In this document: piece by piece, positions 44,549 to 59,605 of the stretch | Position numbering within the stretch: the stretch's first letter is position 1 | Layout: each line of letters begins with the position of its first letter | Source of the DNA: Escherichia phage UB | Direction: 5' to 3' (one strand) | Sequence record: MH383160 | DNA length: 64,000 bases | Notes under the pieces: model-generated | The model's input: the letters and a program-made list of their open reading frames with translations, nothing else | Database searches by the model: none | Told to the model about the DNA's origin: nothing | Made by a program: the position numbers and the translations under genes

Positions 44549-44574
44549 ATAATTATAGCAAAAAGGGTTGACCG
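44549..44574 (-). terminator. Hairpin terminator that also carries a -35, followed by TATAAT
   Basis: Minus strand GUGUUGACuucgGUCAACCC then UUUUUGC-TATAAT; the hairpin arm reads TTGAC and TATAAT lies 18 nt 3', then SD and the ATG of 43753..44523. Confidence 0.55.
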
Positions 44575-44602
44575 AAGTCAACACTTTTACAAAAAAAACC
44601 AT

Positions 44603-44929
44603 TCAGTACACACAATTACCAATATCAATATTTTTACCATTATAGGTAATTATATATTTTATCTTATTTGGTTTTATAACAAAAACTTTTAATTTTTGAT
44701 TTAATTTATCATTTGAAAAAATAGTATATGAACCACTCCCGTCTTTAAAAACTTCTTGACTTTCGAACATAAATTTCTTTCCATCAATTTTAGCAGCTTT
44801 TGTTGAAACATCCAAATACAGTTGATAAATCTTATCAGATTTTGAAGATTTACAAGTAGTTGATGATTCATTTTTTGCATTCACTGTTGTTGATAAACAC
44901 ATTAACATAACTAACATTAACTTTTTCAT
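44603..44929 (-). CDS. putative secreted protein with signal peptide (108 aa)
   Basis: MKKLMLVMLMCLSTTVNA signal-peptide-like N-terminus. Confidence 0.55.
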   Translation of the reverse strand: MKKLMLVMLMCLSTTVNAKNESSTTCKSSKSDKIYQLYLDVSTKAAKIDGKKFMFESQEVFKDGSGSYTIFSNDKLNQKLKVFVIKPNKIKYIITYNGKNIDIGNCVY

Positions 44930-44949
44930 TTTAATTAACCTCTTTTATT

Positions 44950-46413
44950 TTATAAAATTACTTCACCAAAAATACCATTAATATCACGTTCAATAATGTA
45001 CTCACCTTCATGTTTGGCTAAGAATTGTTTTATTACTTCAATTACATTTTGACGATGTATGTTGTTGTATGTTTCAGTATAACCATCACCTCTGTTATAA
45101 TAGCCAATATTTTTATGTGGTTTTCCACACAATGCAACAGTATGAACTTGTGTTTCTAACTCCGATGCCAAAAATCCCCCTTCTTCGGTGTGAAAAAAAA
45201 TAACTAATACATTAGTCCAAAAATTATCAACACCATACTCTTCTAAAAAAGATTTGTTAATTTTTTTAAGTCGGGGTTTGATACTGTTACCCTGTTGGGT
45301 TATTCCGAATTTATCCGATTCGTTTGTTTGATCAACGTTCATATATGAACGTGTAGGTTTGTTTTTCTTAAACCCGTACTCATTATACATTGAAAAACCA
45401 TATTCAAAACTGAAAAAATCTGCAATATTAATTTTTTGTTGAATTGAACTATCACTACGAGAATATAAAAACACACTACGGTAATTAGTGTATTCACCGT
45501 CCCAACCAATAAATGTAAACGTCACTTCATCAGTTGAGCGATTACATAATTCTTTTTTAATTTGATATTCACGCTGTTCTTTTGTCCAACGAAACCCGCC
45601 AGTACAGCGACAACTTAAATGCCCCTGTTTGAGTGTGTGCATTTCTTGCTCAAATTCACCAGTACATAAACCATTTTTTGTATATTCATCGTTTGCACAA
45701 ATTGGACATGAGTATACAAGTTTACTAAATCTCCCATAATCATTAACTGTATCACTACGCTTGAACGTGGTCTTTGGATGAAACTTACCAGTATTCATTA
45801 TTTCGTTAATGTGATTTTCCAATCCGTTATTGCTTTCACGATGATACTGTTTCTTTCTTTCATTCCCACATTTAACACATCCATCATTTGTACCATTCGA
45901 TCCAAATAAAATACCATTTATAGTTGCACTGTTCATGAGTTCATCTGGGTGATGTTCACATACAAGAGTTGGTTTATATGTATTACTTTTAATTATACCA
46001 GTTGGAATTGATAATAATTTCTTTCCAGTTTTTGAAATTTTTCTTTCTATTCGAATAATATATTGATAACGAGTCCATTTTGGTATCTCACTACAACCAC
46101 ATGGAATTATTGAATTCAAATATGACGATTGTGCAATAATATACACACCCAAACCATGCAATTGAACATCATTTGCACAAATTTTACAAATTTTAAGATA
46201 GAACTTAGCTTTGGTCTTTGGATTTCGAATTAATCCCAACAGACTTTCATCACATTCTGTATTAGTATCCTGCTCCAATTGATCAAATGAATCAGGAATT
46301 GGCAATTGTGGATGCTTTTCACGAAGAATGAATAACGAAATTCTAAATGCTTCTTCACTTTTTGCCAAGCTTAATGCATTTTCAACTTCAATTGAACGAT
46401 GTACTTTATACAT
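44950..46413 (-). CDS. large Cys-rich protein with zinc-ribbon-like modules (487 aa)
   Basis: Several CxxC/CxC pairs (CKICAND, CVKCGN, CPICAND, CRCTGG); shares the Cys module with 55334..56107. Confidence 0.55.
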   Translation of the reverse strand: MYKVHRSIEVENALSLAKSEEAFRISLFILREKHPQLPIPDSFDQLEQDTNTECDESLLGLIRNPKTKAKFYLKICKICANDVQLHGLGVYIIAQSSYLNSIIPCGCSEIPKWTRYQYIIRIERKISKTGKKLLSIPTGIIKSNTYKPTLVCEHHPDELMNSATINGILFGSNGTNDGCVKCGNERKKQYHRESNNGLENHINEIMNTGKFHPKTTFKRSDTVNDYGRFSKLVYSCPICANDEYTKNGLCTGEFEQEMHTLKQGHLSCRCTGGFRWTKEQREYQIKKELCNRSTDEVTFTFIGWDGEYTNYRSVFLYSRSDSSIQQKINIADFFSFEYGFSMYNEYGFKKNKPTRSYMNVDQTNESDKFGITQQGNSIKPRLKKINKSFLEEYGVDNFWTNVLVIFFHTEEGGFLASELETQVHTVALCGKPHKNIGYYNRGDGYTETYNNIHRQNVIEVIKQFLAKHEGEYIIERDINGIFGEVIL

Positions 46414-46456
46414 TTAAGGTTCCCATTTATTATCATATGATGAATAACAAAAAATT

Positions 46457-46696
46457 TCAAATTGAATTTGATAATATACCTTTCCAGTACTGAACCCGTC
46501 CAGCACCATTAATTTTAGCTTTAATCTTATCTTTTTCGACAAGACCTTCTTTGTAATCAATTGAAGTATTATCACACTTAATTACATCTAAGTCAAGTAC
46601 TTCTTGGGTAGTTAATGATGTATTATCTGCGATTTGTTGTAGAGTAATTACATCAGTACCGAAGTATTCTGCTAAACGTATAAAAGATAGTTTCAT
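46457..46696 (-). CDS. hypothetical protein (79 aa)
   Basis: ORF; terminator/promoter hairpin cassette upstream (46730..46754). Confidence 0.5.
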   Translation of the reverse strand: MKLSFIRLAEYFGTDVITLQQIADNTSLTTQEVLDLDVIKCDNTSIDYKEGLVEKDKIKAKINGAGRVQYWKGILSNSI

Positions 46697-46729
46697 GTAT
46701 TACCTCTCGTTTCGATAAAATAATTATAG

Positions 46730-46754
46730 CAAAAAGGGCTGACCGAAGTCAACC
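46730..46754 (-). terminator. Hairpin terminator/promoter cassette (UUCG loop on the minus strand)
   Basis: Minus strand GGGUUGACuucgGUCAGCCC with a G-U wobble, then UUUUUGC-TATAAT, SD GAGAGG, ATG 46696. Confidence 0.6.
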
Positions 46755-46761
46755 CTTTATG

Positions 46762-57737: not shown

Positions 57738-57942
57738 ATTTAACGTGTGGTTTATATAGCATAATTAACCCATTTTTAAGTACAATGATTGTTGCTCTGT
57801 TAGTAATCGAAACGTTTTTAATTATACTTTTTTTATATGTTTCAACATATTTCTCTTCATAATTTATACATTTAACATATTCTTTTTGTTTAGCACTTAC
57901 AACAGTACTGAATAATATCAGTACAAGTACTATATATTTCAT
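57721..57942 (-). CDS. putative secreted small protein with signal peptide (73 aa)
   Basis: MKYIVLVLILFSTVVSA. Confidence 0.5.
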   Translation of the reverse strand: MKYIVLVLILFSTVVSAKQKEYVKCINYEEKYVETYKKSIIKNVSITNRATIIVLKNGLIMLYKPHVKCEIVN

Positions 57943-57994
57943 TACTATACCTTATAAACAAAAAGGAATTCATTTAAGAATTCCTATTTTACAA

Positions 57995-58288
57995 TCATTT
58001 ATCTAACATACCATTGTGCAAACGTTCATATACTTCAGTTCGACGCAAATTCACAATATCTTCTGCGTATTTTAATGTAAATGCCCATGCTTTTGGATGT
58101 ACGTTAAGCTTCATACGAATTCGATTTTTCATCAACTCTCCACTTAAACGAATAAATTCGTGTACACCACGACTACCGTATTCAGTAATTAAATCATTAA
58201 TGTACATATCACGAAGAGTTTCATCTGCACATTCTTTAACCATTTCTACGTCAGCGACGATGCTTTCATTAACTGAAGTACTGATCAT
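57995..58288 (-). CDS. hypothetical protein (97 aa)
   Basis: ORF. Confidence 0.5.
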   Translation of the reverse strand: MISTSVNESIVADVEMVKECADETLRDMYINDLITEYGSRGVHEFIRLSGELMKNRIRMKLNVHPKAWAFTLKYAEDIVNLRRTEVYERLHNGMLDK

Positions 58289-58300
58289 TTTTAATTTACC

Positions 58301-58567
58301 TTATTTAAATTCGACTGTAATTTTATCACCTTCAACTACGAACTTACAGTTGTAGCGACGTGCCATATCCATGTACATATGCTCAGAGTACCAAGGAACA
58401 TCAATAATCGGATGCTCTGCATATTGTAGAACTTCACGGTCGCCCACTGTAGTAATGATGAAAGGAATGTTCATCTCTCGTAAAAACAGTTCAGCACCAG
58501 GAGAACGATTAATAAATTCAGTATCATTACGTAAAGTAAATCCATTATATTGTAATTTAAGCTTCAT
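58301..58567 (-). CDS. hypothetical protein (88 aa)
   Basis: ORF. Confidence 0.5.
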   Translation of the reverse strand: MKLKLQYNGFTLRNDTEFINRSPGAELFLREMNIPFIITTVGDREVLQYAEHPIIDVPWYSEHMYMDMARRYNCKFVVEGDKITVEFK

Positions 58568-58581
58568 ATGTTATCCTCTAT

Positions 58582-58926
58582 TCAATACCATTCTTTAAAA
58601 CCATTAAGTTCGGCTACGTGAGTGATTATAACACATATAACATTCAGGTCAAGTATAATTTGATCATAATTTAATTTTATACGATCATCATTATATGCTC
58701 TAAAAACTACATCGTAATCAAAGAAATTTGCGTTTTCATCATTCATTGAAACGATTCGGTATCTACGTCTTCCATCTGTATTGAATATAGTTAAACACTG
58801 TTGAAACTTTCTCATTAACTGTTTAGATAGGATATTATAATATTCAATATCTTTTTGTGAATTACGTGGGTCATCAGGAAGATAGAATGAAACAAATTTC
58901 TTTAATTCTATTTGAGTTTTATCCAT
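58582..58926 (-). CDS. hypothetical protein (114 aa)
   Basis: ORF. Confidence 0.5.
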   Translation of the reverse strand: MDKTQIELKKFVSFYLPDDPRNSQKDIEYYNILSKQLMRKFQQCLTIFNTDGRRRYRIVSMNDENANFFDYDVVFRAYNDDRIKLNYDQIILDLNVICVIITHVAELNGFKEWY

Positions 58927-59359
58927 ATATTACCTCATGTGTTTCTCTTTTACTTTGTCGGAACTCATCCTTTGCTTCCTTAACTGACATGATACGAACT
59001 AATTTAGCACTACCGCAATAGTACTGAACCTGATTACGACCAATGTCTACATGGTGGTCTGGAACTTCATATACAGATATAGCAAACCCAGCACGATGCA
59101 ATTTACCCAAGTCCATAGTGAAGAATCTGAACAAATCTTTCAAACTTTGACAACCAAATACCCATCCACTTTTGATTGAATAGATCCCATCCTCAGTTGG
59201 TTCAGGTTGGAATTGAGAAGGTGTAGTCATAAGCAAACGGTCAAATCCATTTTTAGTACTGTATCTGGTTGAATACCGTGCAAACGGACCTACAGTTCGT
59301 GCAGGATCTAAGTTAGGTTCAATGTAACTAAATTTAAGTTCAAAACGATATACATACAT
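58919..59359 (-). CDS. hypothetical protein (146 aa)
   Basis: ORF. Confidence 0.5.
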   Translation of the reverse strand: MYVYRFELKFSYIEPNLDPARTVGPFARYSTRYSTKNGFDRLLMTTPSQFQPEPTEDGIYSIKSGWVFGCQSLKDLFRFFTMDLGKLHRAGFAISVYEVPDHHVDIGRNQVQYYCGSAKLVRIMSVKEAKDEFRQSKRETHEVIYG

Positions 59360-59413
59360 AATTAAAATCCTCTAATTTATTAAGAGAATTATAACAAAAA
59401 AGGCTGACCGAAG

Positions 59414-59605
59414 TCAACCTTTGTTTTGAAGTTCTTGAACTAATTGTCGTACTTCGTTAATATTTTTACACTGCTTTACAGTGAAGTAATCATACTTACG
59501 ACCATAGGTTCTTGGGTCATCACCTTCCATATACTGCTGCACATCAAAGATTTGTAAGTAGGGATGCTGCATAACACGAATATTATCACTTTGATAAATC
59601 AACAT
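59414..59605 (-). CDS. hypothetical protein (about 63 aa)
   Basis: Start moved to avoid overlap with 59610..59960. Confidence 0.4.
   Translation of the reverse strand: MLIYQSDNIRVMQHPYLQIFDVQQYMEGDDPRTYGRKYDYFTVKQCKNINEVRQLVQELQNKG

Follow-up and report, generated by a model that had tools for sequence, protein, structure and literature searches.

What is a short inverted repeat doing when it recurs, almost unchanged, at one gene junction after another? The question is raised by a 64,000-nucleotide (nt) stretch of the Escherichia phage UB genome (record MH383160), the whole of which is referred to here as the window: between 44 and 60 kb, a hairpin-forming motif is found at seven junctions between open reading frames (ORFs). 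An earlier interpretation (the sequence-only reading) proposed that each hairpin is a terminator, one arm of which supplies the -35 element of the next promoter. Our analysis points the same way. We consider it probable that each copy is a compact composite terminator-promoter cassette of the promoter-early stem-loop (PeSL) type, set in an early, ORFan-rich region of an Asteriusvirus genome.

Seven hairpins between minus-strand genes

The 44-60 kb part of the window is Asteriusvirus sequence (121Q/PBECO4-like jumbo coliphage). It matches 63 phage records and is 97% identical to Escherichia phage 121Q (NC_025447, 98.1-113.3 kb, reverse strand). The Asteriusvirus that carries the hairpins has a genome of approximately 350 kb and lies outside the Straboviridae. 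The ORFs of this part are on the minus strand. In the cassette-bearing early region there are approximately 45 small ORFs, most without a Pfam match (that is, the region is hyperplastic and ORFan-rich), and close relatives cover only 64-89% of it. In 121Q, hairpin copies with the exact core are confined to the segments homologous to the window.

A search of the window with AAAAAGGGYTGACCGAAGTCAACCC, allowing zero to three mismatches, returns seven matches, all on the plus strand as written (Table 1), which bears out the number and placement of junctions originally reported. The number expected by chance is zero and none of 100 dinucleotide-preserving shuffles contained a match, ruling out a chance origin for the seven copies. 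An eighth, truncated copy is present at 47436-47456, directly after the denV stop codon and ahead of a 64-amino-acid (aa) ORF (47422-47228). All seven copies and this half copy sit in gaps between minus-strand ORFs, and in two copies (48.02 and 59.40 kb) the TGA stop codon of the upstream ORF falls inside TTGAC.

Read on the coding strand, the layout is as follows: an A-run, a GGGTTGAC-UUCG-GUCAGCCC hairpin, a run of five to seven T residues, (TGn)TATAAT, a leader of approximately 20 nt, a Shine-Dalgarno (SD) sequence and an ATG. The stem is formed by GGGUUGAC and GUCAGCCC, and the loop is UUCG except in two copies, one with UACG and one with UAAG. On the transcribed (minus) strand, the -35 hexamer TTGACT corresponds to the 5' arm plus the first loop base, and the 18-nt promoter spacer to the 3' arm plus the T-tract; the original assignment of TTGAC to the 3' arm is correct only when the plus strand is read and is wrong for the transcribed one. 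A TATAAT at 18 nt, claimed for the whole set, is exact in four of the seven copies (44.57, 46.74, 48.02 and 59.40 kb), the other three having TATGAT (52.64 kb), TATAGT (56.17 kb) and no credible -10 (53.73 kb). Five copies have a TGn extension. Termination and re-initiation had been proposed for every junction; a -10 element is present at six, the 53.73 kb copy being the exception.

Table 1. Hairpin copies, half hairpin and variant copies in the window, with predicted transcription signals (all coordinates are window positions).
Feature	Position	Strand	Match to AAAAAGGGYTGACCGAAGTCAACCC	Stem and loop	Folding energy (kcal/mol)	Promoter elements	Adjacent gene signals
Composite copy 1	44521..44584	minus	44560-44584	GTG-TTGAC / GTCAA-CCC, one U.C mismatch; loop TTCG	-11.2	-35 TTGACT 44581-44576; T5; TGC-TATAAT 44557-44552	SD GAGG 44535; ATG 44523 of 256-aa AAA-like ORF
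Composite copy 2	46694..46758	minus	46731-46755	GGGTTGAC/GTCAGCCC (46755-46736); loop TTCG	-18.3	-35 46752-46747; T5; TGC-TATAAT 46728-46723	ATG 46696
Composite copy 3	47974..48042	minus	48013-48037	GGGTTGAC/GTCAGCCC (48037-48018); loop TACG (UNCG class)	-20.7	-35 48034-48029; TGC-TATAAT 48010-48005	TGA of HNH-like ORF 48031-48033, inside TTGAC; ATG 47976 (denV)
Composite copy 4	52589..52656	minus	52628-52652	GGGTTGAC/GTCAGCCU; loop TTCG	-16.6	-35 52649-52644; TGT-TATGAT 52625-52620	SD GAGG; ATG 52591 of T7 gp0.7-like protein kinase (annotation in relatives)
Copy 5	53673..53740	minus	53713-53737	GGTTGAC-TTCG-GTCAGCC, then T7	-15.2		ATG of next gene 53675
Composite copy 6	56105..56183	minus	56154-56178	GGGTTGAC/GTCAACCU; loop TAAG	-15.8	-35 56175-56170; TATAGT 56151-56146, no TG	ATG 56107 of 257-aa ORFan
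Composite copy 7	59357..59422	minus	59396-59420	GGTTGAC/GTCAGCC; loop TTCG	-14.1	-35 59417-59412; TGT-TATAAT 59393-59388	TGA of 63-aa ORF inside TTGAC; SD GAGG; ATG 59359
Half hairpin (scar), eighth truncated copy	47436..47456	minus		AAAGGGTTGACTTCGG, then unrelated TTACAC			
Variant copy	2958..2990	minus		GGATTGAC-TCCG-GTCAGTCC, only T3 after stem		GC-TATTAT at 17-nt spacer	
Variant copy	5216..5248	minus		design as at 2958-2990			
Variant copy	8483..8515	minus		design as at 2958-2990			
Variant copy	12509..12541	minus		TGGTTGAC-TTCG-GTCAGCCA		-10 TATTAT	

Terminator and promoter signals in one sequence

The hairpins have the appearance of intrinsic terminators. Folding energies of the minus-strand RNA are -11.2 to -20.7 kcal/mol (z -4.2 to -6.6), compared with -7.7 to -16.7 kcal/mol for the plus strand, and the minus-strand fold is the better one at every site, a G.U pair turning into a C.A mismatch on the plus strand. 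The G+C-rich stems of 8-9 base pairs (bp) and the UUCG or UACG tetraloops lie within the ranges for such terminators (5-14 bp and 3-8 nt, respectively), there is an A-run upstream, and a U5-7 tract follows directly 3' of the stem on the transcribed strand. A simple terminator scan of the region recovers three of the copies, and in the record of phage G17, ARNOLD terminators are annotated at the homologous sites with energies of -13.5 to -17 kcal/mol.

We compared the 18-nt core, GGTTGACTTCGGTCARCC, across two collections. The phage set comprises 42 stretches of IMG/VR contigs containing this 18-mer, in which the number of distinct copies is 57 or 58 according to the flank that tells them apart (the statistics use 58); it includes RaK2, 121Q, GAP32-size and fHe-Yen9-04-size genomes, contigs of approximately 110-160 kb, and T4-like phages of 235 kb and 247 kb. 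The bacterial scan covered 185,579 bacterial and archaeal genomes and found 91 loci, against approximately 35 expected by chance according to our own arithmetic. Twenty-two of these loci, among them ones in Acinetobacter, Vibrio and Exiguobacterium, have a T-run after the core and resemble ordinary terminators. A host-derived motif was considered and rejected, as there is no enterobacterial genome among the 91 matches and the 22 T-run copies have no -10.

In the phage copies, the first pair outside the fixed inner 18-mer is G-C in 45 cases, A-U in seven, G.U in three, U-A in one and C-G in one: the outer stem pairs covary, and TTGAC is an invariant part of the stem. When only the outer GGG/CCC, the T-run and the -10 are fixed in the search, the inner segments mostly remain self-complementary (that is, changes are compensated). 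The loops of variant copies across phages are UNCG or GNRA tetraloops.

Six of the seven copies carry a sigma-70-like promoter (TTGACT-18-TATAAT, TATGAT or TATAGT, with an A-run upstream), and TTGACT-18-TATAAT itself matches the consensus at 10-11 of 12 positions. A good -10 is found 16-18 nt after TTGACT in 53/58 phage copies of the 18-mer, compared with 9.7% of random positions and 25.6% of other TTGACN sites in the same loci; it is found at promoter distance in none of the 22 bacterial T-run copies (phage versus bacteria, Fisher P = 3e-15). TG precedes the -10 in 46/58 phage copies, and the median distance to the SD sequence and ATG that come next is 31 nt. The frequency in phage copies, set against that in bacterial copies and at random positions, indicates that the -10 is an added, phage-specific feature and no by-product of the hairpin. 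A separate promoter downstream of the hairpin, with its -35 in TTTTGC/TTGCTA, was also considered and rejected: there is no -10 at 16-18 nt.

The simplest rival explanation is that the copies are terminators only, with TTGAC and TATAAT incidental to an AT-rich genome and a T-tract, and the downstream genes expressed by read-through. The absence of a -10 from copy 5, the unenriched promoter scan described below and the use of the same hairpin as a plain terminator in bacteria are all in its favor. It does not account for the fixed-distance -10 and the TG that precedes it in the phage copies, for the retention of TTGAC while the outer stem covaries, or for the closely following SD and ATG, and we judge it very improbable.

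Alternatively, the copies could be promoters with a palindromic operator, in which a dimeric phage or host regulator binds TTGAC-N4-GTCAR over the -35 and switches the early promoters off, the RNA hairpin being irrelevant. An inverted repeat over the -35 is in the classic position for an operator, and the site is highly conserved across phages. However, the outer pairs covary instead of staying conserved, the loops belong to RNA tetraloop classes, A- and T-runs flank the stem, bacteria use the same sequence as a terminator, and the asymmetric position (53 G versus 5 A in the phage copies) keeps pairing on the coding-strand RNA only. No candidate regulator was identified, although a protein could still bind in addition. 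This explanation appears quite improbable.

Thirdly, the hairpins could be 3'-end stabilizers or processing sites which, once an RNase has cut, shield the upstream mRNA against exonucleases but do not halt the polymerase. A stable UUCG-loop hairpin does end each upstream ORF, and the neighboring T7 0.7-like kinase is annotated as a modulator of RNase III and RNase E. Against this stand the U5-7 tract directly after the stem, as in intrinsic terminators, the ARNOLD calls, and the finding that termination at an RB49 stem-loop, when assayed, was comparable to that at rrnB T1 (PMC2839356). Stabilization would in any case be an extra effect of the same hairpin rather than an alternative to termination, and as the sole function we find it scarcely credible.

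The composite terminator-promoter reading is therefore preferred over these three, and the proposal that a terminator arm supplies the next -35 is supported by the ARNOLD and bacterial terminators, the phage-specific -10, the fixed TTGAC and the precedent of phages RB49 and phi1 (PMC2839356). Several observations nevertheless weigh against it. Copy 1 has one stem mismatch, and copy 5 lacks a credible -10 (TGTAAATA; TGTAAATAC); the latter is probably a terminator only, belonging to the 515-aa virion-protein gene. All window copies have an 18-nt spacer, which is 1 nt longer than optimal. A generic promoter scan of the region found 108 promoters against 102 expected from shuffles, that is, no enrichment in this AT-rich DNA; what carries the promoter call is accordingly the recurrence of one pattern at fixed positions. 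Common descent links the phage copies, and counting them therefore overstates how many independent events there were. In a hand-picked alignment, nine of 11 pairs are changed on both sides and the paired figure is 98.7%; as the sequences had been pre-selected for pairing, the pair count is inflated and the latter figure circular, and the case for covariation rests on the unselected counts given above. Our literature search found no 5'- or 3'-end mapping for any Asteriusvirus, and no transcript map for a RaK2-like phage.

In the proposed mechanism, host sigma-70 RNA polymerase would transcribe the minus strand, and the G+C-rich hairpin of 8-9 bp with its UNCG tetraloop and U5-7 tract would end the upstream transcript. 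The same DNA would then act as a promoter, with the -35 TTGACT in the 5' arm and loop, a spacer of 17-18 nt provided by the 3' arm and T-tract, and (TGn)TATAAT directly after. A new mRNA with a short leader would start approximately 7 nt past the -10 and 20 nt ahead of the SD (for copy 2, the predicted +1 is an A at approximately 46716). Since each gene or small gene group would carry its own start and stop, it would be insulated from its neighbors. For this phage, we infer these functions (termination, re-initiation approximately 20 nt later, insulation, and the recombination discussed below) from the sequence, from what is known of terminators and sigma-70, and from the RB49 experiments.

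The G.U pair deserves separate mention. It had been suggested that only the minus-strand RNA avoids mismatches; this holds for five of the seven copies, with G.U on the minus strand and C.A on the plus strand, but not for the 44.57 and 56.17 kb copies, in which the inner stem is symmetric. The 53:5 ratio of G to A at this position in phage copies differs from the 14:8 ratio in the bacterial terminators (P = 0.005), and a -10-like hexamer is present on the opposite strand in 13/52 copies with G, compared with a background of approximately 10%. These figures hint, though only weakly, that the bias disables a mirror-image -35 on the opposite strand (antisense-promoter avoidance).

Relationship to known PeSLs and possible gene exchange at the hairpins

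The sequence-only reading had presented the hairpins as a second, new cassette type, but they match cassettes that are already published. In the T4-like phages RB49 and phi1, PeSLs were described as recurrent intergenic cassettes that unite a stem-loop with a strong sigma-70 promoter (Arbiol et al. 2010, PMC2839356). Their order is stop codon, AT-rich stretch, sigma-70 promoter, stem-loop, SD and ATG, in ORFan-rich hyperplastic regions; five subclasses are distinguished by the position of the stem-loop, one of them overlapping the -35, and G-T pairs were noted. Promoter and terminator activities were proven using lacZ assays, recombination was mapped to the PeSL loop, and mini-circles were detected in RB49 (PMC2839356). 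PeSLs were later extended to PST/T4 and nt-1/KVP40, with 'half' PeSLs near insertions and deletions (indels) and an nt-1 consensus of A3-4 G3-loop-C3 T3-4 with TTGYVH-N17-TAWWAT (Comeau, Arbiol & Krisch 2014, PMC4122927).

In the window we find an intergenic repeat, a sigma-70-like promoter, a stem-loop overlapping the -35, an ORFan-rich early region, and breakpoints with half elements. The described host range of PeSLs, T4-like myoviruses (Straboviridae), does not include this phage, a restriction that reflects where PeSLs were described rather than the element itself. By sequence, the seven copies are PeSLs of the subclass overlapping the -35, a kind already known from T4-like phages. What is new, again as judged from sequence, is the RaK2/121Q-like host lineage and the presence of one near-identical core across several families of large myoviruses; no report of PeSLs, or of this motif, in RaK2-like phages was found in the literature. 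For the RaK2-like phage CBB, RpoD-like promoters are reported to be concentrated upstream of short hypothetical ORFs, with promoters and terminators listed separately (PMC5259590).

The closest counterparts are those of Vibrio phage nt-1, which have nearly the same sequence and layout, the -35 in the stem and a G.U pair at the same position; some also share the +1 box. In its published PeSL-rich region (50-57 kb), intergenic AAAAGGGTTGCTTCGGCAGCCCTTTTTTGTTATTCT and AAAAGGGTTGCACTATGCAGCCCTTTTTAGTATTAT...CATCGAAACGAGA are present, and as the published consensus fits the nt-1 elements only when the -35 lies inside the stem, the arrangement is that of the window. Association with indels and 'half' elements is likewise common to nt-1/KVP40 and the window. 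The nt-1 elements differ in having mostly TTGC and an inner stem of 4 bp, compared with TTGACT, a 5-bp inner stem, an 18-nt spacer and a phage from outside the Straboviridae in our case. KVP40 has AAAAAGGGTTGACTACGGTCAGCCC...TATTAT...ATCGAAACGA, and near-identical copies also occur in KVP40, Cronobacter phage CR3 and Klebsiella phage KP27, the record of the last having an overlapping terminator and promoter annotated at its copy. In the commonest RB49 form the stem-loop lies in the spacer (e.g. TTGACAGGGGATCGGCGATCCCCTATACT), whereas the window family has a canonical hairpin and U-tract containing the -35.

Two more general comparisons can be drawn. Like the sigma-70 extended -10 early promoters of T4-like phages, the window copies have a TTGAC-type -35, a spacer of 17-18 nt, TGnTATAAT, an A-rich upstream stretch and a short leader; unlike them, their -35 and spacer double as the arms of an RNA hairpin. 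The general idea of coupling is shared with a preprint entitled 'Widespread coupling of promoters and terminators of transcription in bacteria' (bioRxiv 2026-08-20), which concerns bacteria rather than phage cassettes.

Related composites such as AAAGGGGGTTGACATTCAATCCCCCTTTTTGTTATAAT are found in environmental phage contigs (loci L053, L057, L066, L074 and others). Hairpins in other environmental contigs have no -35-like sequence and are followed immediately by TGnTATAAT. Because environmental contigs carry such composites, a terminator followed by an extended -10 seems to be a widespread compact phage design.

Comparison of the window with 121Q, G17, PBECO4, phAPEC6, JP4 and SHEFM2K (seven genomes in all) shows that homology breaks at 44588, 46745-46767, 48051 and 56149, each within approximately 15 nt of a hairpin. 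At 44588, three phages each have a different endonuclease gene upstream. At 48051, the window and JP4 alone have an HNH-like ORF immediately before the hairpin: this 137-aa ORF (48031-48444, minus strand; an HNH endonuclease by the JP4 annotation, with no Pfam match) is squeezed in after the stop codon of the preceding gene and before the 48.02 kb hairpin, and phAPEC6 and SHEFM2K retain only its last 60 nt. At 46745-46767, JP4 has an extra 612-nt ORF between a full hairpin and a half hairpin, AAGGATTCACTTC|CCC, in which the break falls in the loop, after ACTTC. At 56149, all six relatives have a hairpin, a 37-aa gene (gene 200) and a second hairpin, in place of the single hairpin and 257-aa ORFan of the window (55334-56107, minus strand; no Pfam family; absent from all six). 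The half hairpin at 47436-47456 lies inside a segment (47182-47572) that is absent from PBECO4, phAPEC6 and SHEFM2K.

As direct repeats of 25-60 bp, the copies could double as recombination points, at which ORFs, including homing-endonuclease genes, would be gained, lost or swapped among related phages; comparative genomics shows this in part, and the mechanism itself is presumed. The breakpoints and half hairpins agree with PeSL-style modular shuffling without proving it. Weighing on the other side, indels also occur away from the hairpins (at 45.23, 46.47, 49.10 and 51.91 kb, and inside the 515-aa gene), and the association is weak: approximately four of ten gene-boundary breakpoints are at hairpins, compared with approximately 15% of junctions having one (P ~0.05 by our own binomial arithmetic). 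In SHEFM2K (L092 8056-8469), an extra 414-nt ORF follows closely on the kinase gene; its insertion point, window position 51911, is not beside a TTGAC hairpin.

A stronger version of this idea makes recombination or mobility the main selected function, with the core serving to move ORF cassettes, as a linker or homing target, within and between phage families, and the transcription signals being secondary. The breakpoints and half-hairpin scars, the homing-endonuclease genes that immediately precede the 44.57 and 48.02 kb hairpins and differ from phage to phage, the RB49 PeSL mini-circles (PMC2839356), and the near-identical core in RaK2-like, Vequintavirinae-like and T4-like genomes all speak for it. 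However, each conserved position (-35, tetraloop, G+C stem, T-tract and -10) has a transcriptional rationale, and convergence can thus explain the identity across families; moreover, hairpin positions are mostly stable across the seven genomes and several indels are unrelated to hairpins. We regard recombination as improbable as the main function, while noting that it is compatible with, and not exclusive of, the terminator-promoter cassette.

A broader combination of these ideas would have a mobile module exchanged across families, termination-coupled re-initiation, and a G.U bias selected against the mirror -35. The 18-nt hairpin core, accompanied in some copies by a CATCGAAACGA start box, would have been exchanged among the otherwise unrelated families of large virulent myoviruses in which it occurs (RaK2-like jumbo phages, CR3-like phages of approximately 150 kb and several T4-like genera), possibly aided by adjacent homing endonucleases. 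With RNA released at -17 to -12 of the promoter, the terminating polymerase may be handed directly to the next promoter. Taken together, this combination is rather unlikely.

The terminator-promoter cassette opens no new mechanism, but it would add RaK2/121Q-like jumbo phages, and on sequence grounds CR3-like phages, to the T4-like phages in which PeSL-type composites are known. It is a clear case, supplied by nature, of 45 bp that must satisfy RNA hairpin pairing and sigma-70 contacts simultaneously. As a rule for annotation, 'ARNOLD terminators' of this form in these genomes are probably early promoters too, and the cassettes mark likely seams for the shuffling of ORFan and homing-endonuclease genes. 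For synthetic biology, they may provide a ready-made and very short insulator part consisting of a terminator and a promoter.

Variant copies and neighboring features

Variants of the motif are present in the repeats of the 3-12.5 kb region, as had been noted: GGGACTGACCGGAGTCAATCCC occurs at 2973-2986, 5231-5244 and 8498-8511, with a closer variant at 12524-12537. The copy at 2958-2990 is at the head of the longer repeat of this region. In the copy at 12509-12541, the outer pair is U-A in place of G-C, a compensatory change. In the segments 2780-2990, 5040-5250, 8310-8515 and 12330-12541 (minus strand), the four variant hairpin-promoters share a conserved leader of approximately 50 nt (…GCCCAC(A/C)GGGTGCA…TATCTATT…), after which there is a second promoter, TTGCAT-17-TATAAT. 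The leader is also found behind hairpin-promoters in other phage contigs (L011, L021, L029 and L036). It has no Rfam match, and could be a small RNA or a regulatory leader. In the window as a whole, no Rfam family match and no transfer RNA or transfer-messenger RNA was found.

A second repeated cassette is present in at least ten copies on the minus strand of window positions 1-14000 (e.g. 3231-3304, 4757-4830, 7606-7679, 9185-9258 and 12940-13013) and also at 49848-49925. Its order is TTGACA, a spacer with AGTACTG, TATAAT, CATCAAG, a G+C-rich hairpin (GGGGAGAA...TTCTCCCC) in the 5' leader, SD and ATG; this order resembles that of the PeSL subclass whose stem-loop follows the -10. AGTACT (ScaI-site) palindromes are found within or beside promoters without hairpins at 49923-49896, 43745-43717, 6178-6150, 6454-6426 and 40866-40906, one of them forming the hairpin CCAGTACTATCAAGTACTGG at approximately 40.9 kb. 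These palindromes may be an operator for a phage regulator.

Some of the neighboring genes are also of note. The 487-aa 'endonuclease' ORF (44950-46413, minus strand) has two CapR homology domains (Pfam PF21817), and its slot is occupied by different endonuclease genes in PBECO4, phAPEC6, JP4 and SHEFM2K. The 63-aa ORF directly upstream of copy 7 (59417-59605, minus strand) has homologues (38-56% identity) in RB49-like Krischvirus, including RB49 itself, in rV5-like phages, in an Acinetobacter phage and in T7-like phages, where it is next to the DNA ligase gene; on the basis of these matches, it is a small gene shuffled across families. An exact T4-late-promoter-like TATAAATA is present at 55338-55331 (minus strand), shortly before the start of the 515-aa gene, whose annotation in relatives is virion structural protein. 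This placement suggests that late genes are embedded in the otherwise early-looking region. In 121Q, TATAAATA is found at the equivalent place, immediately after the extra hairpin of that phage.

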